DNA of 64,000 nucleotides from an uncultured Bacilli bacterium (GTDB taxonomy: Bacteria > Bacillota_I > Bacilli_A > RF39 > UBA660). The translations under genes were made by a program, and so were the position numbers. The DNA is taken from positions 5,395-69,394 of the forward strand of contig CAKOTU010000001.1 in the NCBI GenBank assembly GCA_934120265.1, in the 5' to 3' direction. The notes beneath the pieces are model-generated. The model saw only the letters and a program-made list of their open reading frames with translations. It had not been told where the DNA came from and made no database searches. Positions 1,869 to 32,957 of this stretch are shown here, one piece after another. How positions within the stretch are numbered: the stretch's first letter is position 1; every line of letters starts with the position of its first letter.

Positions 1869-1870
1869 AA

Positions 1871-1902
1871 AAGTTTATAAAAAATCTTTATAAACTTTTT
1901 TT
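1871..1902. terminator. bidirectional rho-independent terminator between convergent genes
   Basis: Perfect 11-bp stem, AAGTTTATAAA (1871-1881) with TTTATAAACTT (1887-1897), and a 5-nt loop. An A-run precedes it and a T-run follows. Confidence 0.7.
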
Positions 1903-1907
1903 ATACA

Positions 1908-2474
1908 TTAAAGTATTTTATCAATAATACCATATTCTAGGGCTTCATGAGCATCTAAGAAATAATCTCTTTCGGTATCAAGTTCAACTTTTTCTAATTT
2001 TTGTCCAGTATTTTTAGCAAGCATTCTGTTAAGTTTATTTTTAAGCTTAATAATTCTTTCTGCTGCAATTTTTATTTCTGTAGCTTGACCTTGTGCACCA
2101 CCTAAAGGTTGATGAATCATTACTTCACTATTTTCTAAACAACATCTTTTTCCTTTTTTTCCACAGCTTAATAAAAATGCAGCCATACTAGCAGCCATAC
2201 CAATACAGATAGTAGATACATCACTTTTTATAAAGTTCATAGTATCTAATATGGCCATACCAGCAGTTACCGATCCTCCTGGGGAATTAATATATAAACT
2301 AATATCATTATTATTAATAGAATCTAAATATAAAAGTTCTGCTACAACAACATTAGCAACTTCATCAGTTATTTCACCACTAAGAATTACAATTCTATCT
2401 TTTAAAAGCCTTGAATAAATATCATAGGCACGTTCATAATTATTATTTTTTTCCACAATAGTAGGTATAATCAT
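1908..2474 (-). CDS. clpP: ATP-dependent Clp protease proteolytic subunit
   Basis: Full-length ClpP pattern: [20 protein letters not shown], catalytic Ser in GMAASMAA and His in MIHQPLGG. Confidence 0.95.
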
Positions 2475-2591
2475 TTTATCATCTCCTAATGTTATAATAG
2501 TGTTAATAAAGTAAATTTATACATGAAAAAAAGTGACAAAATACTTAAAATTTGTTAAAATGTAATTGTAAAAATAGAAAAGAGGAACATA

Positions 2592-3596
2592 ATGATAAAA
2601 GTAGCAATTAATGGTTTTGGAAGAATTGGTAGATTAGTATTTAGAATTATGGAAGAAGATCCAGAGTTTGAAGTAGTTGCAATTAATGATTTAACAGACG
2701 CTGAACAACTTGCATATCTTTTAAAATATGATACTAATCATCGTAACTATCGTGTTAATGATATAAGTTTTGAAGGTAATGAAATTATTGTAGGAAATAG
2801 AAGAATTAAAGTATTCGCTGAAATGGATCCTACTAATTTACCATGGGCTGAATTAGGCGTTGATGAAGTGTTTGAATGTACTGGACATTTTACAAAGAAA
2901 GAAGCAGCAATGGCTCATATTACAGCTGGTGCTAAAAAAGTTATTATTTCCGCACCTGCTAAAGGAGATTTAAAAACAATTGTTTATAATGTTAATGAAG
3001 ATATCTTAGATGGAACTGAACAAATTATAAGTGCTGCAAGTTGTACAACAAACTGTCTTGCTCCGGTTGCTAAAGTAATTAATGATGAATTTAAAATAGT
3101 AAAAGGATATATGACTACAGTTCATGCTTATACAAATGATCAAACTATTCTTGATGTAGCTCATAAAAAAGGAATTAAAGCTCGTCGTGGACGTGCTGGA
3201 GCAATGAATATAGTGCCATCTTCTACAGGAGCTGCTAGTGCTTTAGGATTAGTTATTCCTGACCTTGCTGGGAAATTAGATGGAAGCGCATTACGTGTTC
3301 CAACTCCTACAGGCTCAGTTGTTGATTTAACACTAGAGTTAGGACGTAATACAACCGTAGAAGAAATAAATAATGTAATAAAAAGTCATACTAGTGAAAC
3401 ATTAGGATTTACAATGGATCCAATTGTTTCTACAGATATTATTGGTTCACATTTGGGTGGACTTGTTGATGGACTTCTAACTAATGTTTTAGAAGTAGAC
3501 GGAAAACAATTAGTTAAAGTAGTTGCGTGGTATGACAACGAGATGGGATATAGTTCCCAAATGGTTAGAACTGCTAAATATTTAATGAAAAAATAA
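2592..3596 (+). CDS. gap: glyceraldehyde-3-phosphate dehydrogenase (type I)
   Basis: INGFGRIGRLVFR Rossmann N-terminus, catalytic SCTTNCLAP and WYDNEMGYS. Confidence 0.95.
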   Translation: MIKVAINGFGRIGRLVFRIMEEDPEFEVVAINDLTDAEQLAYLLKYDTNHRNYRVNDISFEGNEIIVGNRRIKVFAEMDPTNLPWAELGVDEVFECTGHFTKKEAAMAHITAGAKKVIISAPAKGDLKTIVYNVNEDILDGTEQIISAASCTTNCLAPVAKVINDEFKIVKGYMTTVHAYTNDQTILDVAHKKGIKARRGRAGAMNIVPSSTGAASALGLVIPDLAGKLDGSALRVPTPTGSVVDLTLELGRNTTVEEINNVIKSHTSETLGFTMDPIVSTDIIGSHLGGLVDGLLTNVLEVDGKQLVKVVAWYDNEMGYSSQMVRTAKYLMKK

Positions 3597-3659
3597 AAAA
3601 GAGGCTAAGAACTCTTTTTTATATTGAAAAAAATTGATATAATGGATATGGTGATAATT

Positions 3660-4682
3660 ATGAAAAATAAAAGAGCGTTTACACTAATTGAAATGATTGG
3701 AATTATAACTATTCTAGCATTAATCATGTTAATAGCGTTGCCATCAATGACTAAAACATTAAAAAGAAATGAACAAAAGAAATATGATAACTATATAAAT
3801 AATTTAAAATTAGTTTCAGAAAATTATTTAGTTGATCAATTACAAAAAAAGAATGTCACTTTTAATAATGACGTGACGTATTTTAGCTTGGGTGATATCA
3901 TTGACGCTGGGTATGTAAAAGACGTTATAACAAATCCTAATAATGATAAAAAGATATCAAGAGATACAAGGATTAAAGTTACACAAAATATAGATAGTAC
4001 ATATTCGTTTGAAGTTCAAGAATATTATAATAATATTTCAGATTATAATAAAGAAGATTTGATAATACACTATGATGCAGTTAAGTATACCGGAGGAAGT
4101 AAGTTTATAAATAATACAAATGAGGTAGACTATGATTTAGGAAGTAATGTGACTTGGACGGAAGATGGAATGTTGTTTGAAAACCAGACTGCTCCCGTTA
4201 TAGATTTAAATAAAAAGTATTCTACAGATAGTATTACTGTTAGTTTTAATGTTAAAAGTTTAGATGAATTAGGAAGCTGTGGTAGTTGTTATACTTGGCC
4301 TTTATATCTAAATAATTATGATAGTTCAACAAACAGTGAGACGATAACACAGTTTGCTTTTAGAAAATCAGTTTTCTTGCTTTATGGTAGTGGAAATAAC
4401 ACAGTTTTAAATTCAACTTCTTTAGAAAAAAATAAAAATTATACTATCACATTTGTTCAAGAAGGCTTAACAACAAGAAGAGTATATGTTAATGGTAAAT
4501 TAGCAAATAATTTATCATCAAAAACAGGCTTAAGTTTAAGTACTATAGTTTATAATAGAATACAGTTAAGACCAAAACTATATGATTTAAAAATAAATAA
4601 TCTATTAATCTATAATAGAGCTTTATCTAGTGATGAAGTACAAACTTTATATAATCTTGATAAAGAGAGATTTGGGGAATAA
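3660..4682 (+). CDS. prepilin-type N-terminal cleavage/methylation domain protein with C-terminal LamG (concanavalin A-like lectin) domain
   Basis: MKNKRAFTLIEMIGIITILALIMLIALPS is a class III (type IV pilin) signal. The C-terminal ...LIYNRALSSDEVQTLYN is the characteristic end of Laminin_G_3-type domains. I prefer the ATG at 3660 to the track's TTG at 3624. Confidence 0.75.
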   Translation: MKNKRAFTLIEMIGIITILALIMLIALPSMTKTLKRNEQKKYDNYINNLKLVSENYLVDQLQKKNVTFNNDVTYFSLGDIIDAGYVKDVITNPNNDKKISRDTRIKVTQNIDSTYSFEVQEYYNNISDYNKEDLIIHYDAVKYTGGSKFINNTNEVDYDLGSNVTWTEDGMLFENQTAPVIDLNKKYSTDSITVSFNVKSLDELGSCGSCYTWPLYLNNYDSSTNSETITQFAFRKSVFLLYGSGNNTVLNSTSLEKNKNYTITFVQEGLTTRRVYVNGKLANNLSSKTGLSLSTIVYNRIQLRPKLYDLKINNLLIYNRALSSDEVQTLYNLDKERFGE

Positions 4683-4683
4683 T

Positions 4684-5868
4684 ATGAAAAAAACAATAAG
4701 AGATTATGATTTAAATAATAAAAAAGTAATTATTAGATGTGATTTTAATGTTCCCATCAAAGATGGAAAAATAACTGACGATAATCGAATTAAAGAAAGC
4801 CTAGAAACTATTAAATATGCTATGGATAATAATGCTAAAGTAATATTAATGTCTCATCTAGGAAGAGTAAAGACAGAAGAAGATAAAAAGGATAAATCTT
4901 TAAAAGTTGTAAGTGATAGACTAAGTGAATTATTGAAAAAGCCTGTTATTTTTGTTGACGTAACTCGTGGTGAAAAGCTAGAGTCAGCAATTAATAACAT
5001 GAAATCTCAAGATGTATTACTTATGGAAAATACTAGATATGAAGATGTTGATGGTAAAAAAGAAAGTGGAAATGATTTAGAACTCGGAAAGTACTGGGCA
5101 TCACTAGGTGACATATTTATTAATGATGCTTTTGGTACTTGTCATAGAGCTCATGCTTCTAATGTGGGTATAGCGTCACATCTTCCAAGTGGTATAGGAT
5201 TTTTAGTAGAAAAAGAATTAAATGTTTTGGGAAAAACATTAGAAAACCCTAGCAGACCTTTTGCTGTTATTCTTGGTGGTTCTAAAGTTAATGATAAAAT
5301 AAAAGTAATAGAAAATCTTGTTACTAAAGCTGATTACATATTAATTGGTGGTGGAATGGCTTTTACATTTTTAAAGGCTAAAGATATAGAAATAGGTAAA
5401 TCAATATTAGATGAAGAAAATATTTCATTTTGTAAAGAAATGATGAATAAGTATCCTGATAAAATAATTTTACCAATTGATACTGTTTGCAGTAAAAAGA
5501 TAGATGAAGAATCAGAATTTGAAAATAAATTTATTACAGATTTAAAATCGGATGATATAGGACTAGATATTGGTTTTAATACTGTTAAGTTATTTTGTGA
5601 ATATTTAAGTGAATGTAAAACAGTGATATGGAATGGCCCTGTTGGTATGTGTGAACTAAAAAATTATCAAGATGGCACTAAAAAGTTATGTGAATTTTTG
5701 TCAAAACTAAATTCTAGTGTTATAATTGGTGGAGGAGATACCGCTGCCGCAGTAATATCATTAGGATATAAAGATAGTTTTACGCACATTTCTACAGGTG
5801 GAGGAGCTTCCTTAGAATTAATGGAAGGAAAAGTTTTACCGGGAATTGATATAATAAATGAAAAATAG
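4684..5868 (+). CDS. pgk: phosphoglycerate kinase
   Basis: KKVIIRCDFNVP, MSHLGR and the C-terminal STGGGASLE motif. The ATG at 4684 follows the upstream stop by 1 nt; the track ORF's extra 18 codons overlap the previous gene. Confidence 0.95.
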   Translation: MKKTIRDYDLNNKKVIIRCDFNVPIKDGKITDDNRIKESLETIKYAMDNNAKVILMSHLGRVKTEEDKKDKSLKVVSDRLSELLKKPVIFVDVTRGEKLESAINNMKSQDVLLMENTRYEDVDGKKESGNDLELGKYWASLGDIFINDAFGTCHRAHASNVGIASHLPSGIGFLVEKELNVLGKTLENPSRPFAVILGGSKVNDKIKVIENLVTKADYILIGGGMAFTFLKAKDIEIGKSILDEENISFCKEMMNKYPDKIILPIDTVCSKKIDEESEFENKFITDLKSDDIGLDIGFNTVKLFCEYLSECKTVIWNGPVGMCELKNYQDGTKKLCEFLSKLNSSVIIGGGDTAAAVISLGYKDSFTHISTGGGASLELMEGKVLPGIDIINEK

Positions 5869-5945
5869 ACTTATTGTACCGCTTTTTACAGTGTATACAA
5901 TGAATATGATTCATGGTAAAATGAAAAAAATAGGAATAGTCAAAT

Positions 5946-6974
5946 ATGAAAAAACTCTTACAAAATAAAAAAATAAGTTTTGCGTTTTTAATTGTATTAA
6001 CAGGTATTGTATTATTTTTTTCACTCAAAGATAATTTTTTTGAAACACTAGAGCAAATTAAAAACATGAACTTTTTGTGGCTTTTTGTTGCTATTTTATT
6101 ACTAGTTGGTTATTGGTTATTTTCATCGTTAGCAATGAAACTTATAACTAATAAATTTAATGATAAAATAAAAATAGGAAAGATATTTAAATTAAATGTT
6201 GTAACACAATTTTTTAATGGCATAACACCTTCATCTTCAGGAGGTCAACCATATCAAATTTATGCATTAAAAAAGTCAGGACTGACTTTAGTAGATAGTA
6301 CTAACGTTTCAATTCAAACGTTTGTGTGTTACCAATTTGCTCTTGTTTTACTTGGCTTTGTTGCTATCATATTTAATAAGGCACTTGGTTTATTTACGAA
6401 AATTGATTTTTTGAAAATATTAGTAATAGTTGGTTTTACTGTTAATATTGCGATTGCAGCATTTCTATTTGCGATTACAATCACTAAAAAAATGAATAAA
6501 AAAATAATTAAATTTGTAATTAATATTGGTTATAAATTAAAAATAATCAAAAACAAAGAGAAAGCAAGCAAAAAATTAAATGATAGTATAGATCAGTTTC
6601 AACAAGGAACTTATTTATTACTACAAGATAAAAAAATGTTATTACTAGCAATTTTATATCAATTATTAGGCCTTATAAGCTTATATTCTATACCAGTAAC
6701 ATTGTTGTTTGGTATGGGAGATTACTATAGTATAAATTTAGGATTATCTATAGTAGCAACTGCCTATGTTATGGTTGCAGGTTCTTTTGTTCCACTTCCA
6801 GGTGGAACTGGAGGACTAGAATATGCTTTTGTTTCATTCTTTGGTAATTTCATAGAAGGTAGTAAATTAACTGCTTTAATGATAATTTGGAGGTTTATTA
6901 CTTATTATTTAGGAATGATAATTGGTGGTATAATGTTAAATATAGGAAAAAAGGAGACGACAGATGGAAAATAA
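5946..6974 (+). CDS. flippase-like / lysylphosphatidylglycerol-synthase transmembrane-region family membrane protein (UPF0104)
   Basis: About 8 predicted TM helices with PSSSGGQPYQ and LPGGTGGLEY motifs typical of this family. The 3' end overlaps the tpiA start by 11 nt. Confidence 0.6.
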   Translation: MKKLLQNKKISFAFLIVLTGIVLFFSLKDNFFETLEQIKNMNFLWLFVAILLLVGYWLFSSLAMKLITNKFNDKIKIGKIFKLNVVTQFFNGITPSSSGGQPYQIYALKKSGLTLVDSTNVSIQTFVCYQFALVLLGFVAIIFNKALGLFTKIDFLKILVIVGFTVNIAIAAFLFAITITKKMNKKIIKFVINIGYKLKIIKNKEKASKKLNDSIDQFQQGTYLLLQDKKMLLLAILYQLLGLISLYSIPVTLLFGMGDYYSINLGLSIVATAYVMVAGSFVPLPGGTGGLEYAFVSFFGNFIEGSKLTALMIIWRFITYYLGMIIGGIMLNIGKKETTDGK

Positions 6975-7695
6975 AAAATTAGTTGTTGCAAATCTAAAAA
7001 TGGATATGGATGCGACAGAAGTTAGTGAGTATTTAAAAAGCATTGTTGGAAAGATTAATAACTCAAATATTATTATTTGTCCTTCTGCTATTTATGTTCC
7101 TTATTTCTTAAAACATCGCTTTAGTATTGGTATGCAAAATGTATGTGAAGAAAATAACGGTAATTATACTGGTGAAGTTTCTGCTCGTCAGGCTGCATCG
7201 CTAGGAATAAAATATTCATTAGTTGGTCATAGTGAAAGAAGAATTAATTATTATGAAGACAATGATTCAATTAGTAGAAAAATAAATAGTCTACTTAAAA
7301 ATAATATGACCCCCATTCTATGTGTTGGCGAAACAAATGAGGAAAAGAATTTATTGAAAACAAATAAGGTTTTAAAAAGCAAGCTAGTATCTTGCTTAGA
7401 AAATGTAAATAAAGAAGATATCTCAAAAATAATTATATCTTATGAACCAATATGGGCTGTTGGAAGTAAGAGAATCCCAACAATGGCAGAGATAAAAAAT
7501 ACTGTCAAATATATAAAAGAATTAATAAAAAAAATATATGGCATTGATATCAAAGTTATATATGGAGGTAGTATTAATTCAAACAACATCGAAAAGATAA
7601 AAAAAATTGAGTGTTTAGATGGAATTATGATAGGATCTAGCTCAACAGTTGCCTCAGAATTTATGAAAATTTTAGAAGTTATTGATCATGAATAA
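6964..7695 (+). CDS. tpiA: triose-phosphate isomerase
   Basis: VVANLKM, GHSERR, catalytic YEPIWAVGS and YGGSI. RBS AGGAGA lies upstream. Confidence 0.9.
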   Translation: MENKKLVVANLKMDMDATEVSEYLKSIVGKINNSNIIICPSAIYVPYFLKHRFSIGMQNVCEENNGNYTGEVSARQAASLGIKYSLVGHSERRINYYEDNDSISRKINSLLKNNMTPILCVGETNEEKNLLKTNKVLKSKLVSCLENVNKEDISKIIISYEPIWAVGSKRIPTMAEIKNTVKYIKELIKKIYGIDIKVIYGGSINSNNIEKIKKIECLDGIMIGSSSTVASEFMKILEVIDHE

Positions 7696-7710
7696 CTTCT
7701 TTTTATTTTT

Positions 7711-7727
7711 TTCGACAAAATTCGACA
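7711..7727. promoter_or_regulatory. two tandem perfect Spo0A boxes (TTCGACA = reverse complement of TGTCGAA) spaced 10 bp apart, upstream of spo0A
   Basis: TTCGACAAAATTCGACA occupies 7711-7727. A degenerate third copy TTCGTTC is at 7741-7747 and a TATAAT at 7772-7777. Confidence 0.6.
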
Positions 7728-7807
7728 AAACTAGCTATTTTTCGTTCTAGCACAAATCAAACCTTTAGTAGTATAATAAAAACATATGAATAGATAGGAG
7801 AACAAAT

Positions 7808-8581
7808 ATGGAAAAAATAAAATTATTAATGATAGATGATAACGTGAACTTAGTTAAAATGGTTCAAGAATATTTTAGTACTAATGAAAATATTTCATTA
7901 GACATTACTGCTTATGATGGTGCAGAAGGAATAAAAATTATAGAAGAAAGACAAAACGATTATGACATAATATTACTTGATTTAATTATGCCTAAAAAAG
8001 ACGGATTATATGTTCTAGAAGAAATGCAAAAGAGGGGCATAAATAAAAAAGTTATAGTGGAAACTAGCTATAATGCTAGTGAAGTAATTAAAGAAGTCGC
8101 AGAGTTTGGAGTAAATTATTTTATTTTAAAACCATTTGAACTAGCTGATTTAGAAAAAAGAATATTAGATACTGTTAAAACAAAAACCAATACTAAAAAA
8201 GAAATAGATTTTTATAATAGTAATTTACAAGTATCAATAACAAAAATATTACACGAATTAGGAATTCCATCACATATCAAAGGATATCAATATATTCGTG
8301 AAGGTATAGGAATAATTTTTGATCATCCAGAAACGATTGGTGGAATAACAAAGGAATTGTATCCAGAACTAGCCACAAAATTTGATACAACAGTTTCACG
8401 TGTAGAAAGAGCAATAAGACACGCAATTGAAGTTAGCTGGAATCGTGGTAGTTGGGATTTGATGGAAGAGATATTTGGTCATAGCGTTGATATAGATAAA
8501 GCTAAACCAACTAATTCTGAATTTATTGTAACAATTGCTGATAAATTAAGATTAGATTATTATAAAGTTGGTAGTGTTTAG
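7808..8581 (+). CDS. spo0A: sporulation master response regulator Spo0A
   Basis: Receiver domain (DDN...LLDLIMP) plus the diagnostic Spo0A C-terminal DNA-binding region IPSHIKGYQYIREGI...SRVERAIRHAIEVSWNRGS. Confidence 0.95.
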   Translation: MEKIKLLMIDDNVNLVKMVQEYFSTNENISLDITAYDGAEGIKIIEERQNDYDIILLDLIMPKKDGLYVLEEMQKRGINKKVIVETSYNASEVIKEVAEFGVNYFILKPFELADLEKRILDTVKTKTNTKKEIDFYNSNLQVSITKILHELGIPSHIKGYQYIREGIGIIFDHPETIGGITKELYPELATKFDTTVSRVERAIRHAIEVSWNRGSWDLMEEIFGHSVDIDKAKPTNSEFIVTIADKLRLDYYKVGSV

Positions 8582-8624
8582 AATAAAAATGTGTTATAAT
8601 TTGTTTTAGGGGGAGAAATAAATT

Positions 8625-9506
8625 ATGGATAATTCTAAATATTTATTTGTTGTAAATCCTAAAGCGGGTAAAAAAAAGGGATTGCAAATTTTTAACAGAA
8701 TTCTTCGTTTTGCTTATGAATCAAAAGAAGAAGATAATTTAAGTTGGATGTGCACCAGTGAAAATAAAGAAATAACTAAAAGAGATATTTCTTGTCGCCT
8801 AAAAGATAATCCTAATTTAACTGTATATTCTGTAGGTGGAGACGGAACATTAAACGATGTAATAAATAGTGTTGATAGTGGCACTAGACTTGGGATAATA
8901 CCTATAGGATCTGGTAATGATTTTTACCGTGTTAGTAGTAAGATAAAAGGTGATAGAAAAATAAATTTAGGAGTTGTAAACGGGCGCAAATTTATCAATA
9001 TAGCATCTTTAGGACTTGATGCTAGAATCGCTGATAGAGCAAATTATTTAAAAGAAAATTATAAAAAAACGTTAATATATTTTAGAGCTATTTTAAGTAT
9101 TATTAAAGATAATAGATCTATAGAGTATACAATTAATGGAGAAAAAGATAAATCTACAGTTCTTGTTATTGGTAATGGTAAATATTATGGCAACGGTGTA
9201 CCAATTAACCCCAAATATGATTTAAGTAGTAATTATTTAAATATAATAAGTGTTCCCGAATTAAAAGACAGACAAATAATAAAATTTATATTAAAAGCAC
9301 TTATGGAAAAACATATAGATGATCCAATGATAAATCATTATATGGCAAAAAAATTAAGTATAATATCTGATGAGGAATTATTATGTAACATTGATGGAGA
9401 AATAATGACATCTAAAGAATTTAATTTTGAAGTTATAGAAGATGGTATTACTTTAACTAATGATTACCCTCAATATGTAAAAAAAGCAATTAATTTGATT
9501 AAATAA
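8625..9506 (+). CDS. diacylglycerol/lipid kinase family protein (YegS/BmrU-like)
   Basis: NPKAGKKKG N-terminus, YSVGGDGTLNDVIN and PIGSGNDF motifs. Confidence 0.8.
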   Translation: MDNSKYLFVVNPKAGKKKGLQIFNRILRFAYESKEEDNLSWMCTSENKEITKRDISCRLKDNPNLTVYSVGGDGTLNDVINSVDSGTRLGIIPIGSGNDFYRVSSKIKGDRKINLGVVNGRKFINIASLGLDARIADRANYLKENYKKTLIYFRAILSIIKDNRSIEYTINGEKDKSTVLVIGNGKYYGNGVPINPKYDLSSNYLNIISVPELKDRQIIKFILKALMEKHIDDPMINHYMAKKLSIISDEELLCNIDGEIMTSKEFNFEVIEDGITLTNDYPQYVKKAINLIK

Positions 9507-25274: not shown

Positions 25275-25466
25275 ATGTTATTTAATAGAAACTGTGGCTG
25301 CAATCGTCAAATAGGTAATGCTTTTGGATTTGGTGGTGGATGTTGTAATCAACCAATGATGGAACAACCAGTTATAGAACCAACTATTAATAAATGTATT
25401 GAAAAAGAGTTCTATCATGAAGTACCACATGTTTGTTTGAAAAGTGATGACATATGGAACATATAG
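25275..25466 (+). CDS. CotD-family spore coat protein, 5' segment of a split gene
   Basis: Host-derived codons run to 25430; the last 12 codons including the stop are read-through into the insertion. RBS GGGGGA lies upstream. The sequence MLFNRNCGCN...CCNQP...EPTINKCIEKEFYHEVPH stops matching the family at His52 and is completed in frame by 31221..31376. Confidence 0.75.
   Translation: MLFNRNCGCNRQIGNAFGFGGGCCNQPMMEQPVIEPTINKCIEKEFYHEVPHVCLKSDDIWNI
25426..25451. repeat. attL: CACAT core (25426-25430) plus element-side arm
   Basis: CACAT is repeated at 31216-31220. The arm GTTTGTTTGAAAAGTGATGAC (25431-25451) is an inverted copy (15/21 matches) of 31196-31216. Confidence 0.65.
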
Positions 25467-25718
25467 TAATAAATAAAGGGACAAATCAAGATTTAATCTA
25501 ACTGAAGACATGAATAATATAGGTGATAGAGTTATTGATTAACCAATGAATGTTAAGAGATAATAATTTTGGTAAAAACAAATTCATTAGAAAATTAGAA
25601 ACAAAAATTAATGATACTTTTAACTAGATTATATGTATAACAAATTAAGCAATATAATAAAGAAATAAGTAAATATCATTTATTTTTATATGGTATAATA
25701 TTTTAAAGGAGGTTTGCT

Positions 25719-27476
25719 ATGAAATCAGAACAAATTTGTGATATTTTTGAACAACTTGATAATAATAATACTTATAAAAAAATATTTATAAATGGTGCTT
25801 GGGGTATAGGAAAAAGTTTTTATACAAATGAATATAAAAAAAATCATAATGACAATATTGTTTATGTTAGCCTTTTTGGGAAAAATTCATTTGAATCTAT
25901 AGTTAATTCTCTTTCAAAAGAATTTATGAAACAACTAAAGGGATTTAAAGGTATAAAAAGGAAAGTAATGAAATCCGTAGAAAAAATTCAAGGGTCATTT
26001 TCTTATAAAGGGATTAGTATAAATTCTCCAACTATAAATAATAAAAGCTTATTAGAAGAATATTCAGAATTACTAAAAAAGAAAGACCTTATTATAATAA
26101 TGGATGATTTAGAAAGAAAAAGTGTAAATATTCCTATAGAAGATATTATGGGATTAATTGAAGAATTTTCTCTGATTGAAAAAGTTAAAATTGTTATTAT
26201 TGGTGATGAAACTAATATTAATGAGAATGAAAAAGAAAAATGGAATAAATTTAAAGAAAAAATTGTCGAAAAAGAATACAAAATTGATACTTTTTCAGAA
26301 GAAGCAATAGAATCCATTGTTATTAAAAAGTTAAATATCTATATAAGTGAAGATAATTTAAAAAATTATATTTCAGATTTTTTAAGTAAGCACAGGGTTA
26401 AAAATTTAAGAACAATTAATAAGGGGATAAATCTGTTTGATGAAATAGTTAATAACTATCTTGAACAAAAATATGATGAAAGTGTTAATTTAATAATTTT
26501 AAAAAATTGTATGTCTGTTTCAGTAGAATATACTGAACAATTATATAAACCAGATGAAAATGACAAAGATTCAAATGATACATTTAAATTAATTTCATAT
26601 AGTACTAATTTGGAAATGCCATCTAGAATTATGTTCAATTATTTCAATTTAGATTTTGCAAATACGAGAGAATCATCTATTCTTGAATATGTAATAAAAT
26701 TTTATAATACTGAAATAAGTGATGAAGTTATAGAAAAATTTAATAATGTGTTAAAAAATTATGTTAGTGCAAAAAAAGATAAGAGTATATTCTATCTATC
26801 GGAAAAAGATATTATTAATAAATTAGAAAAAATATATACAAGTATTGAAAGTGAAAAATATAAAATAAAAACATTGGAAGAATTTATAGATGATATATAT
26901 ACAGTGCTTAATTATAATAAAAGATTTTCCTTGAAATATAATTTTGATTTGATTTCTACTCATGTTAATAATATTTTATTTACTCAGTATTATAATATTT
27001 CAAAAGATGAGTATAATAATAAAATTGATGAATTTAATTTAGTAAAATATAAATCATCTGAATTAGATGAAATTGTGAGAGTATATAATGATAGAGTATC
27101 AAAAAAATACACAATTGATAAGATAGACTACATAATCGAAAAATATAAAAACAATGATTTAAATACTAATTATTTAATATATTTAAGAGATAAATTTATA
27201 CAATATGATTCTAAATATTCACAGGAATATTTTGTTGAATCTTGTAGAAAAAATAATTTTTTATTACCAAATTTAGAGAGCGAAATTCAAGAAAGTGATT
27301 GGTTATGGACACATATGATTTGGACATTGTTTTATAAATATTTAGAACCGAATTATCAAAAAGAATTAAATGATTATGTGGAAAAAATTAAATCAAAGAA
27401 TAAACTAATTAAGTATAGAATTGATGCTTTACAAGAAAATAAACCACTAATAAAAAAAGAGATGAGTAATCGTTAA
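25719..27476 (+). CDS. KAP-family P-loop NTPase
   Basis: Walker A INGAWGIGKSF and the KAP-type Walker B LIIIMDDLERKS, followed by a long alpha-helical C-terminal region. RBS GGAGG lies upstream. Confidence 0.8.
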   Translation: MKSEQICDIFEQLDNNNTYKKIFINGAWGIGKSFYTNEYKKNHNDNIVYVSLFGKNSFESIVNSLSKEFMKQLKGFKGIKRKVMKSVEKIQGSFSYKGISINSPTINNKSLLEEYSELLKKKDLIIIMDDLERKSVNIPIEDIMGLIEEFSLIEKVKIVIIGDETNINENEKEKWNKFKEKIVEKEYKIDTFSEEAIESIVIKKLNIYISEDNLKNYISDFLSKHRVKNLRTINKGINLFDEIVNNYLEQKYDESVNLIILKNCMSVSVEYTEQLYKPDENDKDSNDTFKLISYSTNLEMPSRIMFNYFNLDFANTRESSILEYVIKFYNTEISDEVIEKFNNVLKNYVSAKKDKSIFYLSEKDIINKLEKIYTSIESEKYKIKTLEEFIDDIYTVLNYNKRFSLKYNFDLISTHVNNILFTQYYNISKDEYNNKIDEFNLVKYKSSELDEIVRVYNDRVSKKYTIDKIDYIIEKYKNNDLNTNYLIYLRDKFIQYDSKYSQEYFVESCRKNNFLLPNLESEIQESDWLWTHMIWTLFYKYLEPNYQKELNDYVEKIKSKNKLIKYRIDALQENKPLIKKEMSNR

Positions 27477-27747
27477 AAACTTACTTATCTTTTTTTCTTA
27501 TAATCGAGAAACGTCTCTAAACAAAAATAACATATATAAAAGAATTTGTTCTGTTTTGAAGTATTTTTAATGTATTTAAATATATCAATTTTCTTAATTA
27601 TTATTTGTAAATTAAAAAAAATAAAAAAGTTTAATAATATGCATATGTGAGTTGTTTTAGTAATAAATTAATGTGTAATTTTTGAATTAAAACTTTATTC
27701 TTAATTAAAGCTATAAATATGATATAATAATAATAGGAGTTGATAGT

Positions 27748-29076
27748 ATGGGATTAAGATATAGGAAAAGTATTAATTTAGGCTGTGGATTTAGAATTAA
27801 TTTAAGTAAATCAGGTGTTGGATACAGTTGGGGCTTTCCTGGTTATAGAATGACAAAAAAAGCAAATGGTGGAATTAGAACAACATATTCATTGCCTGGA
27901 ATGGGAATTTCTTATGTTGAAGAAAATAAAGGGAGAAGTTATAATTCGTCTCCTAATTTGTTAACTGGCGAAACAATTAATTATGAAAATACAAATATTA
28001 TTAATTTAGGCAAAGACGATTTGATCCTAAAAAATATAAGAAAGTTAAGAGAAATAAATTTAATGTCAAATATTTGTATTATTTCATTTATTCTTTTTCC
28101 AATATTTCCACCAATGCTATTATTTTTAATTATAGGTATAATCTTAAAATTATTGTTGGCGACAAAATGGAAAATAGATTTAATTTATGAGTTTGATGAC
28201 CATAGCTTAAAAAAATATGAATGCTTAAAAAATGTTATGTCAACACTATCAACTAGTAAAAAAATATGGCAGGTTAAAACTTCGACAAAAGTATATAATA
28301 CAAAATATAATGCTGGAGCTGGTAACAATATTACTAGATATAATATTTCCCTAGATAAAAAATTACCATTTTATATTAAGCATAATGTAGATATATATTC
28401 TTTAAAATTAAAAGGAGAAAAAATGATTTTTACCCCAGATAGAGTTTTGTATTTAAAGGGGCTAACTGGAGTATATGGTAGAAATTTTAGGGATATGTTT
28501 ATTGACGTTTGTGATACTCGGTTTGTAGAAAGTGATGCTGTACCAAAAGATGCAGAGATAATTGATTATACCTGGCAATATGTAAATAGAAGTGGTGGCC
28601 CAGATAAAAGATTCAATAATAATAAGCGCCTGCCAATATGTAAGTATGGTCAAGTGATCTTTAAAACAGATGATGGAATTAATATACGTATTGAATATTC
28701 AAACGCAGGGCTTAAATCAATAATTAAAAATTCATTTATTGAATTTGCTAAATATCATAATGAAGAAATTGATAATGAACAAAAAAATAATTTGAAATCA
28801 GATTATGAAGATAGTAAAATTCAGGGTTCGGATAGTAGTAATCTAGAAAGTATAGATGATAATAGTGTTGAAAGTGAACCCTTATACAAGGAAGTTGTAG
28901 AATTTGTTATATCAAATGGAAAAGTAAGTGCTTCTCTTTTACAGAGAAAATTTAAGTTTGGTTATAATAGAGCTGTTCGTTGTGTTAAATTGCTAGAACA
29001 AAATGGTATTATTGGACCAAATAATGGAACAAAAACTAGAATGGTAATTATTAAAAATAGGAGTGATGAAGAGTAA
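27748..29076 (+). CDS. membrane protein with N-terminal DUF4236, a central TM segment and a C-terminal FtsK-gamma winged-helix DNA-binding domain
   Basis: MGLRYRKSINLGCGFRINLSKSGVGYSWGFPGYRMT...PGMGISY matches DUF4236. The hydrophobic stretch is ICIISFILFPIFPPMLLFLIIGIILKLLL. EPLYKEVVEFVISNGKVSASLLQRKFKFGYNRAVRCVKLLEQNGIIGP matches the FtsK/SpoIIIE gamma domain. Confidence 0.75.
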   Translation: MGLRYRKSINLGCGFRINLSKSGVGYSWGFPGYRMTKKANGGIRTTYSLPGMGISYVEENKGRSYNSSPNLLTGETINYENTNIINLGKDDLILKNIRKLREINLMSNICIISFILFPIFPPMLLFLIIGIILKLLLATKWKIDLIYEFDDHSLKKYECLKNVMSTLSTSKKIWQVKTSTKVYNTKYNAGAGNNITRYNISLDKKLPFYIKHNVDIYSLKLKGEKMIFTPDRVLYLKGLTGVYGRNFRDMFIDVCDTRFVESDAVPKDAEIIDYTWQYVNRSGGPDKRFNNNKRLPICKYGQVIFKTDDGINIRIEYSNAGLKSIIKNSFIEFAKYHNEEIDNEQKNNLKSDYEDSKIQGSDSSNLESIDDNSVESEPLYKEVVEFVISNGKVSASLLQRKFKFGYNRAVRCVKLLEQNGIIGPNNGTKTRMVIIKNRSDEE

Positions 29077-29414
29077 AATTTTTATTACTCTTTTAATTTA
29101 TATAAATAACTAAATTTTTAATATTTTTAGGTGTATATTAGTAAAAAAATATTTGTATACTAAATATTTTTTTGACATTCTAACAAACATTTTAAGTTTT
29201 ATTATTTAATCATACTATTTTTTCAGACTTCATCGTATTTGCTTTTGTTTGATACTATAGTGTTTTTTGGTATTTTATTTTCAATAGATCTATTTTTTTA
29301 AATAGTCTTTTTTTGTATTAAATATTTATTGTTGTTATTTGAATGATGCTTAAGTAGAAAACGAAAGAATTTAATAAAAATCTTATATTGGCATAAGTTT
29401 AATTAGGTGAACCT

Positions 29415-29501
29415 ATGAAAATAAAAAATCATTTTGATGAAAATGGTAAAAAATTAGAAGATATATTAGAACAATTTTTACTTAAAATTTGTTTGGACTA
29501 A
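29415..29501 (+). CDS. possible 28-aa small ORF upstream of the recombinase (MKIKNHFDENGKKLEDILEQFLLKICLD)
   Basis: AGGTGA RBS 5 nt upstream of the ATG. No recognisable family, so it may not be expressed. Confidence 0.25.
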   Translation: MKIKNHFDENGKKLEDILEQFLLKICLD

Positions 29502-29572
29502 ATCGTTATAGGCCTTTAAAAACAAAGAAAAAATGATATATATCAATATGTGTTCAACCAAAAGGAGAAATT

Positions 29573-31156
29573 ATGAATTTAAAGAACACATGGAAAGCTG
29601 GTATTTATATAAGACTTTCCAAAGCTGATGAAAAAGAAGAAAACGATGAAAGTGAAAGTATAACTAATCAAAGAAATTTTATAATTTCATTTTTACAAGA
29701 AAACAATTATGAATTATATGATGAGTATATTGACGATGGACTTACTGGAACAAGTTTTGATAGACCTGCTTTTAATAGAATGATTGATGATATTGAAAAT
29801 AAAAGAATAAATATGGTTATTACAAAGGATGCTTCAAGGTTAGGAAGAAATAATGAAGATTTTATCGGTTATACTGAAAGGTATTTTCCTGAACATAATA
29901 TAAGATATATTTCTATACTTGATGGAATTGATACTTATTTAGATAATATTGGCAATGATATGATACAAATAAAAGGTATGATGAATGAATGGTATAGTAA
30001 AGATATCTCTAAAAAGATTAAAGCAAGTATAGAAACTAAAAAGAAACAGGGGTTGTTTCTTGGTGGTTATACCCCTTATGGTTATAAACATGATCTAAGG
30101 AATAAATATAAACTTATTATAGATAAAAATGTAGATGATAATGTTAAACTTATTTATGATATGTTTATTAAAGGTAATAGTTTAGGAAAAATAGCAAAAT
30201 ATCTTACTGAAAATAAAATACCAACACCAAGTGTTTATAAAAGTATGAATTTTAATAAAGATAGAAAGACAAGAAATATTTGGGATCCAAAAACTATTGA
30301 TAATATATTAAAAAATCCCACATATATTGGTAATTTAGTACAAAATAGAAGAAAAAAAATAAACTATAAATCAAAAAAGGTAGTTACTAATCCAAAGGAA
30401 AAATGGATTATAGTTGAAAATACACATGAAGCAATAATTGATTTAGAAACTTTTGAAATTGTACAAAATATTTATTCGAAAAATAAAAATAGGAATGAAA
30501 AATCCCACGATTATTTATTAAGAGGTTTTTTATTTTGCAAAGAATGTGGTCATACTTTAGGAATTCAACAAAGTAGCGATAAAAAAAGAAACTATATGAT
30601 ATGTAATCATTATAGAAAGTATGGAAAAAATAGTTTTTGTTCTCCACATAGTAATAGATATGAAGATGTTGAAGAATTGGTATTGAAAGAAATAAGAAAA
30701 ATGTGTAAGAAATGCGTTAATAAGAAAAAATTTGAAAGTATCTTAAAAAATAATACTAAAAAAAGCAAGATGTTAGAAGAGATAAATAATAAAATTGAAA
30801 AAGCAACTAATTTATTACTAAACAATAAAGAATCTATTAAAACAATATACAAGGACAGAGCAAAAGGACTTGTAGATTTAGAAACATATACAGAAGTTTA
30901 TAATGATTTAATAAACGAAACTAATGAAATTAAAATTTTAATTGATGAATTAGAAAAAAGTAAAAAAAATTTATTAAATAATAAATTATATGATAATTAT
31001 AATTATGAAGAAATTGTTGAAGAGTATTTATCAATGAAAAAGCCTAACAAATTACTTTTATCTAGTATTATTGATAGAATAATCATTGATGAAAATAAAA
31101 ATGTTGATATTTACTATAAAATCAAACCTATTTCTGATTATAAAATAGGAAAATAA
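29573..31156 (+). CDS. large serine recombinase (resolvase/invertase catalytic domain, recombinase domain, zinc ribbon and coiled-coil)
   Basis: AGIYIRLS catalytic-Ser N-terminus, DDGLTGTSFDRPAF, VITKDASRLGRN, the PYGY recombinase domain, the Cys cluster CKECGH...CNHY...C and a long Lys/Glu-rich coiled-coil. The architecture is SpoIVCA/SprA/TnpX-like. Confidence 0.9.
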   Translation: MNLKNTWKAGIYIRLSKADEKEENDESESITNQRNFIISFLQENNYELYDEYIDDGLTGTSFDRPAFNRMIDDIENKRINMVITKDASRLGRNNEDFIGYTERYFPEHNIRYISILDGIDTYLDNIGNDMIQIKGMMNEWYSKDISKKIKASIETKKKQGLFLGGYTPYGYKHDLRNKYKLIIDKNVDDNVKLIYDMFIKGNSLGKIAKYLTENKIPTPSVYKSMNFNKDRKTRNIWDPKTIDNILKNPTYIGNLVQNRRKKINYKSKKVVTNPKEKWIIVENTHEAIIDLETFEIVQNIYSKNKNRNEKSHDYLLRGFLFCKECGHTLGIQQSSDKKRNYMICNHYRKYGKNSFCSPHSNRYEDVEELVLKEIRKMCKKCVNKKKFESILKNNTKKSKMLEEINNKIEKATNLLLNNKESIKTIYKDRAKGLVDLETYTEVYNDLINETNEIKILIDELEKSKKNLLNNKLYDNYNYEEIVEEYLSMKKPNKLLLSSIIDRIIIDENKNVDIYYKIKPISDYKIGK

Positions 31157-31193: not shown

Positions 31194-31376
31194 GTGTTAT
31201 CACTTTGGAAGCAGGCACATTGCTGTCCAATTCATACACACACTATAAATAAACATATCTATACACATACATATACTCCACAATATTCTTGTTCTGAAGA
31301 AAATGTTGTTGTAAATAATGACTGTGGAAGTTGTAGTGGTCTTGCTAATCAAGGATTTAACAACACAAATATGTAA
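31194..31376 (+). CDS. CotD-family spore coat protein, 3' segment of the split gene (host-derived from 31221)
   Basis: ...H CCPIHTHTINKHIYTHTYTPQYSCSEENVVVNNDCGSCSG... continues the His/Thr/Pro-rich CotD-like core. The first 8 codons from the GTG at 31194 are element DNA, so this is not a genuine start. Confidence 0.75.
   Translation: MLSLWKQAHCCPIHTHTINKHIYTHTYTPQYSCSEENVVVNNDCGSCSGLANQGFNNTNM
31196..31220. repeat. attR: element-side arm plus CACAT core (31216-31220)
   Basis: GTTATCACTTTGGAAGCAGGC (31196-31216) is an inverted partner of 25431-25451. It contains the perfect 8-mer ATCACTTT, matched by AAAGTGAT at 25441-25448. Each 8-mer lies 10 nt from the shared ACAT. Confidence 0.65.
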
Positions 31377-31480: not shown

Positions 31481-31873
31481 ATGGATGATGAAAAAATATT
31501 AAAAGATTTAGATGATCATTTAACATTATCTTTTTATACTGATATGACACAAGACAGACTGAATAAGTTAATTGATTATTGCAAAAATAATGATTTAAGA
31601 GAAAAGGCCTGGAGACTCGCTCTTACTTTTTCTAATTATAACTTTGATTATTTAAAATTAGCTAAATATTATATTGAAGTAAAAGACTCGTGGTATTTAC
31701 CAGAGCTATTACACGTAGTAGGTGAAGAAAAAATTAAAATATATGATGTGTATAGTGATGTTTTAAAAACAAATGATGAAAAATTTATCGCTGAAGTTCA
31801 AGAAGCATTTATGTGGTATTTCAGTGCTGAAGATAAAGATGAATTAAAAAAGGTAATAGATGGTTGTAAATAA
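31481..31873 (+). CDS. hypothetical protein (130 aa, acidic, helical)
   Basis: Clean ORF with a weak RBS. I recognise no family. Confidence 0.5.
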   Translation: MDDEKILKDLDDHLTLSFYTDMTQDRLNKLIDYCKNNDLREKAWRLALTFSNYNFDYLKLAKYYIEVKDSWYLPELLHVVGEEKIKIYDVYSDVLKTNDEKFIAEVQEAFMWYFSAEDKDELKKVIDGCK

Positions 31874-31949
31874 TTTAATTATACAAAAAAAGCACTATTT
31901 AGTGTTTTTATTTTTATATTAGAAAAGTTATAAAAAATGTAAAAAGTTA

Positions 31950-31979
31950 TTGACAAACATTTGTTTGCTTTGATACAAT
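31950..31979 (+). promoter_or_regulatory. sigma-A-type promoter with an AAAC-N4-GTTT palindrome in the spacer, upstream of the DinD-like gene
   Basis: TTGACA at 31950-55, an 18-nt spacer and TGATACAAT (extended -10) at 31971-79. AAACATTTGTTT occupies 31955-66. Confidence 0.5.
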
Positions 31980-32105
31980 TTAATTGCTTGAAAGATAATG
32001 TATATGGATAAAACTTATTGATAATAATTATTCTTTGAAAATTTTTTAGTATAAATTGAAGAAATATAATAAAAAACAGTCGATATAAGAACGAGGAGGT
32101 TACGA

Positions 32106-32957
32106 ATGAATCAGGATAAAATGCATTTAATTAATAAAATTATTAATAATGAAACAATAAGAACGGTGTGGGATAAAGAAGATGAAAAATATTATATTAG
32201 TGTTGTTGATATAGTGGGAGTAATATCAGAAAGCAAAGATAAACAGTCTTACTGGAGAAAACTAAAGCAGAGGTTAAAGGAAGAAGGAAATGAAACCGTG
32301 ACAAATTGTCACGCTTTGAAATTAAAAGCTCAGGATGGTAAATATAGGTTAACAGATGTTGTCGATATTGAAGGAATATTTAGAATAATTGAATCTATTC
32401 CTAGTAAAAATGCAGAACCAATAAAGATATGGTTAGCTAAATTAGGAAGTGAAAGAATTGATGAAGTATTTGATCCATCACTTGCAGCACAAAGAGCTAT
32501 AGATATATATCGTGCTAAAGGTTATGATGAAAAATGGATTGCAAAAAGAATTAAAGGTATTCAAGATAGAAAACAACTTACTGATGTATGGAAAGATGGT
32601 GGAATAACTGAATCAAAAGAATATGCAATCCTTACAAATGAAATTTATAAAGAATGGTCTGGCATGACTGCAAAAGAGTATAAATCATTTAAAGGACTTA
32701 GGAAAGAATCATTAAGAGACAATATGTCTGATATAGAAGTGGCACTTGCAGATTTAGGGGAAATAGCAACTAGAGAGATTGCTAAAAAGAAAAATCCAAA
32801 AGGTTTGAATGAAAATATTGAGGTGGCAAGGCGAGGTGGTAAAATTGCTGGTAATACAAGAAAAGATTTGGAAAACGAACTTGGTGAGAGTGTAGTTACT
32901 AGCGATAATATATTAAGCTATGAATATATCGACGAAAAAGAAATTGAAATGAAATAG
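32106..32957 (+). CDS. Bro-N domain protein, DinD (DNA-damage-inducible protein D)-like
   Basis: The N-terminal IRTVWDKEDEKYYISVVDIVGVIS...YWRKLKQRL resembles Bro-N/DinD family proteins. RBS GAGGAGG lies upstream. Confidence 0.7.
   Translation: MNQDKMHLINKIINNETIRTVWDKEDEKYYISVVDIVGVISESKDKQSYWRKLKQRLKEEGNETVTNCHALKLKAQDGKYRLTDVVDIEGIFRIIESIPSKNAEPIKIWLAKLGSERIDEVFDPSLAAQRAIDIYRAKGYDEKWIAKRIKGIQDRKQLTDVWKDGGITESKEYAILTNEIYKEWSGMTAKEYKSFKGLRKESLRDNMSDIEVALADLGEIATREIAKKKNPKGLNENIEVARRGGKIAGNTRKDLENELGESVVTSDNILSYEYIDEKEIEMK

Follow-up and report, generated by a model that had tools for sequence, protein, structure and literature searches.

Do two neighboring genes on a small mobile element work as one system, or were they merely brought side by side? 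The question is raised by a 64,000-nt stretch of DNA from an uncultured Bacilli bacterium (assembly GCA_934120265.1, contig CAKOTU010000001.1, positions 5,395 to 69,394; “the window” below means this whole stretch), in which a cotD-like spore-coat gene is split by a serine-recombinase element. Besides its recombinase, the element carries gene 1, which encodes a KAP-family P-loop NTPase, and gene 2, which encodes a protein with a DUF4236 domain, a membrane segment and an FtsK gamma domain. An earlier note on this DNA had proposed that the two form a sensor/effector module against incoming DNA. We consider it likely that they are instead the accessory load of a decayed, mosaic element. In this reading gene 1 would be an anti-phage gene, gene 2 a functionally independent orphan, and their adjacency the product of a deletion.

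Co-occurrence of the two families across genomes had been set beforehand as a test of the pairing. We built family alignments for the KAP proteins and for gene 2 and searched the profiles against all six-frame open reading frames (ORFs) of the sampled loci. For KAP relatives these comprised 24 genome loci and one viral locus, for gene-2 relatives 80 metagenome and 67 viral loci; the contigs of the closest homologues were included as well. A KAP relative was found at none of the 105 non-self loci containing the gene-2 core (upstream sequence extends for 2 kb or more in 71 of these), and a gene-2 relative at none of the 31 non-self KAP loci (24 with at least 2 kb downstream). Both families were met together only in L004 to L007, where the proteins are 100% identical and represent copies of the same element in other samples. 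The lack of co-occurrence is a direct observation on these loci, and it is the result that the earlier note had said would refute its pairing.

The closest relatives of each gene indicate how they came to be neighbors. The closest KAP homologue (P0122, 81% amino acid identity) lies on a sister element, L112/L113, in which a 74-aa ORF and the KAP gene are followed by two opposite-strand genes encoding a 111-aa protein and a 61-aa HTH_17 excisionase-like protein, then by about 6.6 kb of cargo and a 527-aa recombinase. This element has the KAP gene and the recombinase in common with that of the window; gene 2 is missing from it, and the ~6.6 kb of unrelated small genes stand in its place. The closest gene-2 homologue (P0002, 80%) is found on L118 (ERZ28564105), where an identical HTH_17 gene and the beginning of the 111-aa gene lie ahead of it.

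By blastn, window positions 25490-27571 correspond to L112 6269-8393 (84.7% identity) and include 95 nt at the 3' end of the 111-aa gene. The next matching segment, 27583-27646, corresponds to both L112 8809-8877 and L118 306-374, the region upstream of the HTH_17 gene. It is followed by 27701-29207, which matches L118 631-2151 (82.5%), and by 29219-29969, which matches the 5' region of the recombinase at L112 15493-16265 (87.6%). L112 8394-8808 (415 bp) is missing from the window between 27571 and 27583. Because the window skips this segment and yet matches both sides of it, the 271-nt AT-rich gap between genes 1 and 2 is, on these alignments, the scar of a deletion of about 415 bp that took most of the 111-aa gene and the whole HTH_17 gene; the remnant has no coding capacity. 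This deletion brought gene 1 and gene 2 together. By the same comparison, the KAP gene and gene 2 were separated in the ancestral layout by the opposite-strand pair, and an operon-like arrangement is not seen in the closest relatives, where this pair intervenes.

The 74-aa ORF persists in the window only as a frameshifted, stop-containing pseudogene. Judged from the 415-bp deletion and this broken ORF, the window element descends from a mosaic family in a decayed and minimal form, in which three genes are maintained. Should the HTH_17 protein be the recombination directionality factor, the element may no longer excise, so that the spore-coat gene stays split. The deleted pair (L112 8295-8805) also accompanies a 62%-identical KAP gene in L114 to L116; it was rejected as a general KAP partner since it accompanies only the 81% and 62% homologues. 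The features of the element are arranged as follows.

25275..25430, plus strand: 5' part of the split cotD-like gene, ending in the attL core CACAT at 25426-25430 (alignment with P0234; weak Pfam CotD match)
25431..25718, plus strand: left element end with the decayed copy of the 74-aa ORF at ~25468-25690 (blastn against L112; stops and frameshifts)
25719..27476, plus strand: gene 1, KAP NTPase with a helical C-terminal region (Pfam, PADLOC, PHROGs, AlphaFold2)
27477..27646, minus strand: deletion scar, with the 3' remnant of the 111-aa gene (27477-27571), the junction (27572-27582) and the remnant from upstream of the HTH_17 gene (27583-27646) (blastn)
27748..29076, plus strand: gene 2, DUF4236, anchor, core and FtsK gamma (Pfam, PHROGs, AlphaFold2)
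29573..31156, plus strand: large serine recombinase with Resolvase, Recombinase and Zn_ribbon_recom domains (Pfam)
31216..31376, plus strand: attR core CACAT (31216-31220) and 3' part of the split cotD-like gene (alignment of attB, attL and attR)

Alignment of attB, attL and attR defined the element as a precise insertion of 5,790 bp, with the core CACAT shared by attL and attR. The empty site that supplies attB was found in another metagenome sample (L191 2171-2482), which shares the ffh-DUF4186 synteny with the window and carries an intact 103-aa cotD-like allele (P0234, 99% identical). When the 63-aa ORF at 25275 and the ORF ending at 31376 are joined, they likewise give a 103-aa protein, and its junction, EVPH followed by CCPIH, is reproduced exactly in P0234. 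The element borders and the scar were thus read directly from alignments. Since an empty allele with the same synteny occurs in another sample, the host population is polymorphic for the element.

The Pfam CotD match of the reconstituted protein across the junction is weak (E 0.0014, just below the cut-off), and homologues of the split gene are named as CotD family or bear PF11122. The assignment, weak by its own profile score, is therefore supported by the named homologues. The core CACAT falls inside the conserved HEVPHCCP motif of the cotD-like gene. L112/L113 splits cotD-like genes at the same ...HEVPHVC break (L112 5995-6156; L113 2815-2985), and its two insertions are in different paralogues, one located after recO-DUF212 and the other after ffh. 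Because the insertions lie at the same break in two paralogues, the target of the element family is a conserved motif, not one particular locus.

The recombinase of the window (527 aa, 29573-31156) matches the phrog_95 integrase family (E 2e-112), and an NCBIfam CcrB/XisF-like match falls below the cut-off. Besides this gene and genes 1 and 2, the att sites enclose no intact ORF of 50 aa or more, and there are no transfer genes among the ORFs of the element. On the material itself the earlier note was accurate: the 5.8-kb element with two substantial genes besides the recombinase and no transfer functions, the two intact ORFs of 585 and 442 aa, and the 271-nt gap with a separate ribosome-binding site for each gene (AGGAG-type in both cases) were all confirmed.

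The KAP signature that had been noticed in gene 1 (25719-27476, 585 aa) was also borne out. Pfam KAP_NTPase (PF07693) matches residues 21-237 (E 2.1e-10, 40.8 bits against a cut-off of 20), and the Walker A motif GAWGIGKS (25794-25817) and Walker B motif IIMDDLER (26088-26120) are invariant in 18 homologues. Transmembrane helices in or next to the NTPase, which are common but not universal in the KAP family, are missing from gene 1: no 19-residue hydropathy window exceeds 1.6 (maximum KD19 1.48), and the AlphaFold2 (AF2) model is wholly soluble. In this model (pLDDT 82.7) an AAA+/STAND-like NTPase is followed by an all-helical region of about 330 aa. The fold matches were generic and of low TM-score (ORC/Cdc6 and the RADAR ATPase RdrA) and gave no clue to an effector. 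Three PADLOC PDC-S49 models match the protein (E 6.1e-26, 4.4e-16 and 3.6e-10, the longest spanning residues 8-516), as does phrog_4740; an NCBIfam search gave no match. With a dN/dS of 0.24 relative to its closest homologue, gene 1 is under purifying selection. The G+C minimum of the region falls on the KAP gene and the scar (25500-27750; 0.18-0.22 versus 0.25-0.33 in the flanking ffh and DUF4186 genes), which is consistent with foreign origin.

Elsewhere, relatives of gene 1 adjoin a type I restriction-modification (RM) system (L019), a type II RM system and a small resolvase (L017), AAA_21 and RloB genes (L013), a UvrD-PDDEXK helicase-nuclease and a methylase (L012), and a type IIG RM gene and a PLD-helicase (L114). 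Two SPbeta-like phages, SPbetaL1 (L001 5001-6698) and Goe12 (L002 5001-6698), carry full-length relatives singly (24-28% identity), and in SPbetaL1 the relative lies six genes from the anti-Gabija gene gad1. SPbeta, the type of phage that carries these relatives, is itself an intervening element of a sporulation gene.

A recent study showed that a single KAP P-loop NTPase with a region of about 300 aa of unknown function protects Enterococcus faecalis from phages (2026; PMC13552941). The protective proteins came from Enterococcus, Faecalibacterium, Lachnospira and an unclassified gut contig; protection required the Walker B motif and the C-terminal region, and the authors concluded that it is not abortive infection (PMC13552941). 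By this class-level precedent, gene 1 most likely encodes an anti-phage protein that stands alone and is switched by nucleotide. The KAP domain would bind and hydrolyze nucleotide and thereby switch or drive the C-terminal region, and the protein would act as a single-protein anti-phage factor, independently of gene 2. Retention of the KAP gene in both the window element and the sister element is consistent with its being selected cargo. The anti-phage part of the earlier proposal therefore holds for gene 1 alone, on its PDC-S49 matches, its contexts and the published class; for gene 2 it is circumstantial, coming from neighbors. PADLOC matched gene 1 to PDC-S49 and had no match for gene 2.

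Gene 2 (27748-29076, 442 aa) contains the three parts that had been described. DUF4236 occupies residues 3-56 (27754-27915; Pfam E 1.6e-20, above the cut-off), and a hydrophobic stretch of about 45 residues with a central Pro-Pro (102-146; 28051-28185) is modeled by AF2 (pLDDT 75.6) as two helices. The FtsK_gamma match covers residues 375-435 (28870-29052; E 3.5e-22, 78.3 bits against a cut-off of 30.6); this domain matches solved FtsK gamma by sequence (2j5o, E 3e-12), and its model superposes on KOPS-bound 2ve9 with a TM-score of 0.92 and an rmsd of 1.2 A. A beta-rich core (~residues 140-330; ~28165-28737) corresponds to phrog_17982 (E 2.9e-56) and is joined to the gamma domain by a disordered linker. 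The alpha/beta RecA-like motor of FtsK (PF01580, PF17854) is missing by Pfam. Sequence and fold searches of the PDB recognized the gamma domain alone and gave no match for the beta core, NCBIfam recognized only the FtsK C-terminus, BFVD returned only other DUF4236 proteins, and PADLOC had no match for gene 2 or for other architectures of its family. The domain content of both proteins and the purifying selection on both genes are direct observations; for gene 2, dN/dS was 0.17 relative to its closest homologue, and by this measure the orphan gene is maintained.

The N-terminus of gene 2 is strongly basic (net +7 in residues 1-60). Because of this and the Pro-Pro-broken hydrophobic stretch, the model suggests a membrane hairpin with DUF4236 and the gamma domain both in the cytoplasm, a topology in which the predicted binding of double-stranded DNA at the membrane is possible. 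Gene 2 would then hold double-stranded DNA at the inner membrane face via its FtsK-gamma winged helix. The recognition helix reads NRAVRCVK in gene 2 and NRAARMIE in Pseudomonas aeruginosa, so that the N and R are kept while the third position is K for E. We take N1296, R1300 and E1303 to be the KOPS-reading residues of the Escherichia coli FtsK gamma domain. The recognition-helix positions vary among members of the gene-2 family as well (R to M, E to D), and these substitutions suggest that the gamma-type family may have diversified in DNA specificity rather than reading KOPS/SRS.

The gene-2 core alone retrieved 3,046 clusters at 50% identity (2,136 at E<=1e-10). Among the matches listed, the core mostly spans residues ~140-340, and a protein length of ~330-380 aa is common. 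Members of the family are carried by plasmids and phages of Listeria, Pseudomonas, Vibrio, Citrobacter, Rhizobium, Xanthomonas, Hymenobacter, Curtobacterium and Microcystis; on IMG/VR contigs, 11 of the 16 core-containing matches lie within 3 kb of a contig end. Its C-terminal variants include gamma only (about 450 aa), the full FtsK alpha-beta-gamma motor (750-870 aa), SAP, and unknown regions of about 250 aa. The motor domains PF01580 and PF17854 are present in the sister architectures P0023 and L045, and sister architectures with the full motor or a SAP domain were found at loci with SSB and adhesin genes.

Within this family three kinds of partner recur. A Zn-ribbon/transmembrane/DUF4352 protein (about 240 aa) is encoded immediately downstream, often overlapping, in 14 loci (L032-L036, L041-L048, L121); these include most gamma-type orthologue loci that have downstream sequence, and alpha-beta-gamma-type members have the partner too. 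In L037 (640-6243), L038 and L040, the DUF4236-core gene is preceded, at a distance of 4 nt, by the gene for a PDC-S37/Hhe-type helicase-nuclease (1,261 aa). On the conjugative P. aeruginosa plasmid pHPA0875-2 (L194 1-6098), a DUF3320 giant helicase overlaps the start of the DUF4236-core gene. As a helicase-nuclease accompanies a DUF4236-core gene in Firmicutes and in Pseudomonas alike, the two genes may be associated across phyla.

Finally, a gamma-less DUF4236-core protein is the last product of a seven-gene operon met in 11-16 loci (L060, L061, L063, L068, L076, L077, L090, L098, L106 and L111; about 1000-9000 in each). The order is Ser/Thr kinase, an unknown protein of ~455 aa, FHA with Zn-ribbon, a radical-SAM-activase-like Fer4_12 protein, a ClpB-like AAA_2 protein that hits PADLOC PDC-M37B/DolB, a ~244-aa protein with a weak PDC-M21C match, and the DUF4236-core protein. 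This kinase/FHA/ClpB-like operon appears to be undescribed. None of these recurrent partners (Zn-ribbon/DUF4352, Hhe-like helicase, kinase/FHA operon) is present in the window, and no remnant of the DUF4352 partner was found across its whole length. Other neighbors of the family are DUF4238, AbiO/Nhi-like proteins and Dcm methylases.

At one further locus (L120 2182-18009), a Peptidase_S11 gene (D-Ala-D-Ala carboxypeptidase-like) is apparently split by about 14.6 kb. The intervening DNA contains two large serine recombinases, Sa_NUDIX and DncV-like genes (CBASS-type), ThsA_Macro and ThsB_TIR genes (Thoeris-type), an MkoC/Hhe-like helicase and a 51%-identical gene-2 homologue. The stretch looks like a defence island on another putative gene-splitting element.

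The earlier note had also asked whether such genes sit in defence islands or beside serine recombinases. Both families do occur in defence-island-like contexts, and these contexts, observed directly, are separate; a recombinase is near only about 9 of the 105 gene-2 loci. With low certainty, we propose that gene 2 encodes a membrane-anchored DNA-binding accessory of mobile elements, possibly with a role in exclusion or defence, whose normal partner is missing here. It would serve as a mobile-element-borne exclusion or defence factor or as a DNA-handling accessory.

Could the two genes form one system nevertheless? The membrane-tethered gamma protein would then sense incoming DNA and signal to the KAP NTPase, or the reverse, in a joint anti-phage or anti-plasmid defence. 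It is true that the two intact genes lie side by side on one strand and are both under purifying selection, that both families are found in defence-island-like surroundings, and that the L118-type relative may link them without adjacency. However, the families failed to co-occur in 105 plus 31 independent loci, and the adjacency was made by deletion of two opposite-strand genes. The sister element has the KAP gene without gene 2, KAP homologues stand alone in SPbeta-like phages, and each gene has different recurrent partners. In addition, the two have separate ribosome-binding sites with a 271-nt scar between them. A joint system is therefore very unlikely, and the proposed two-gene module had to be given up. 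We regard as extremely unlikely the further suggestion that gene 2, through its gamma domain, disturbs or makes use of SpoIIIE/FtsK in sporulation and so biases inheritance or excision of the element. The family, with the same core, extends across non-sporulating phyla and their plasmids and phages (it was found in Pseudomonas, Rhizobium, Vibrio, Xanthomonas, Listeria and a cyanophage), gamma-type orthologues occupy many sites that are not sporulation genes, and gene 2 is missing from the sister element, which occupies the same target gene. The location inside a spore-coat gene and the structural closeness to FtsK gamma, with two of the three KOPS-reading residues kept, speak for the idea, but the third specificity residue has changed from E to K, and on the whole it found no support.

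Another possibility is that gene 2 maintains the element, either as an architectural or directionality cofactor of the recombinase, perhaps in place of the lost HTH_17 protein, or as a motor-less relative of FtsK-like conjugative translocases in entry exclusion. Gene 2 lies directly upstream of the recombinase, its L120 relative directly downstream of one, and serine recombinases lie within about 6 kb in approximately 9 of 105 loci (phmmer count and cluster-based listing). The sister architectures with a full motor or SAP domain, at loci with SSB and adhesin genes, would also fit. This is nonetheless improbable, as about 90% of the family loci have no recombinase nearby, recombination directionality factors do not usually have a membrane anchor, and the element has no transfer genes. 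It could also be speculated that the large family consists of membrane-anchored, DNA-recognizing exclusion or immunity proteins with alternative partners, and that the copy in the window is an active orphan, conceivably newly coupled to the KAP protein. We consider this unlikely, though it has a real if small chance of being correct.

Several points weigh against our own reading of two independent genes. Many of the sampled contigs are short, and absence within a few kilobases is not absence from the genome. L118 stops inside the 111-aa gene, and its synteny with L112 makes a KAP gene just upstream probable; the KAP gene and gene 2 may thus co-travel, non-adjacently, in at least two 80%-related elements of one lineage. 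Gene 1 is without the transmembrane helices of EF_KAP, one of the proteins of the 2026 study, and its likeness to the tested KAP proteins is one of architecture. A literature search for PDC-S49 and DUF4236 gave no functional work, and what we propose for gene 2 is grounded in domain content and neighbors only.

If the two genes are indeed independent accessory load, the tempting “new two-gene system” is removed and two separate items are left. The locus joins known kinds: a defence-type KAP NTPase as cargo of a sporulation-gene intervening element, which is ordinary accessory cargo. A soluble PDC-S49-type KAP protein on a minimal intervening element would extend the newly validated KAP defence class, and if gene 1 defends its host, such elements would be shown to pay their way by defence cargo. 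The potential for discovery rests with the gene-2 family alone, independently of the window locus: as a large, unannotated DUF4236-core family with defence-type partners, it is a reasonable target for defence-discovery screens.

Directly to the right of the element (31481-32957) are a 130-aa ORF without family match and a gene for a 283-aa Bro-N domain protein. Since Bro-N is typical of phage and mobile-element regions, a second mobile segment may adjoin the element. A promoter/terminator scan of this AT-rich DNA was uninformative, with 53 promoter-like sites observed versus 61 expected and no terminators, and a repeat search returned only AT-rich noise.

How does this locus compare with known systems? 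Gene 1 resembles EF_KAP and three gut-metagenome KAP proteins (PLoS Biol 2026, PMC13552941) in its architecture of a KAP NTPase followed by a domain-less region of about 300 aa, in its Firmicute/gut origin, and in its location beside serine recombinases and defence genes. In contrast to gene 1, EF_KAP has two transmembrane helices, and gene 1 is located on an intervening element with a large serine recombinase rather than beside a small one. Tmn and PifA of the F plasmid are KAP/YobI-like P-loop NTPases implicated as single proteins in phage exclusion (summarized in PMC13552941). Gene 1, too, encodes a single KAP-type P-loop NTPase; however, it has no PADLOC match to the Tmn models and no membrane insertion. 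The likeness to PDC-S49 consists of the HMM match, the stand-alone occurrence, and the contexts in defence islands and mobile elements. We take PDC-S49, a PADLOC name, to be a computational defence candidate only.

For gene 2, the nearest known structure is the gamma domain of FtsK/SpoIIIE (PDB 2ve9, 2j5p, 5dcf), which residues 375-435 resemble by Pfam and by structure, with the N and R kept. Unlike FtsK/SpoIIIE, gene 2 has no alpha/beta motor, its gamma domain forms one protein with DUF4236, a membrane anchor and a beta core, and its third specificity residue is K instead of E/D. A further comparison concerns the usual downstream partner of the gamma-type orthologues. It bears DUF4352, a domain of Mpr, the phage-resistance protein of Mycobacterium smegmatis (PMC9262609, PMC12596739), but it is missing from the window.

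The element as a whole is best compared with skin (in sigK), SPbeta (in spsM) and gin (in gerE), which are intervening elements of sporulation genes with serine recombinases (PMC5025042, PMC4191935, PMC5595907). It differs from these in its target, a cotD-like gene, in its cargo, which is defence-type instead of prophage genes, and in the loss of the HTH_17 candidate directionality factor. What it shares with them is the precise insertion into a sporulation-type gene, the short core, the terminal position of its large serine recombinase, and the occurrence of an empty allele in the population.

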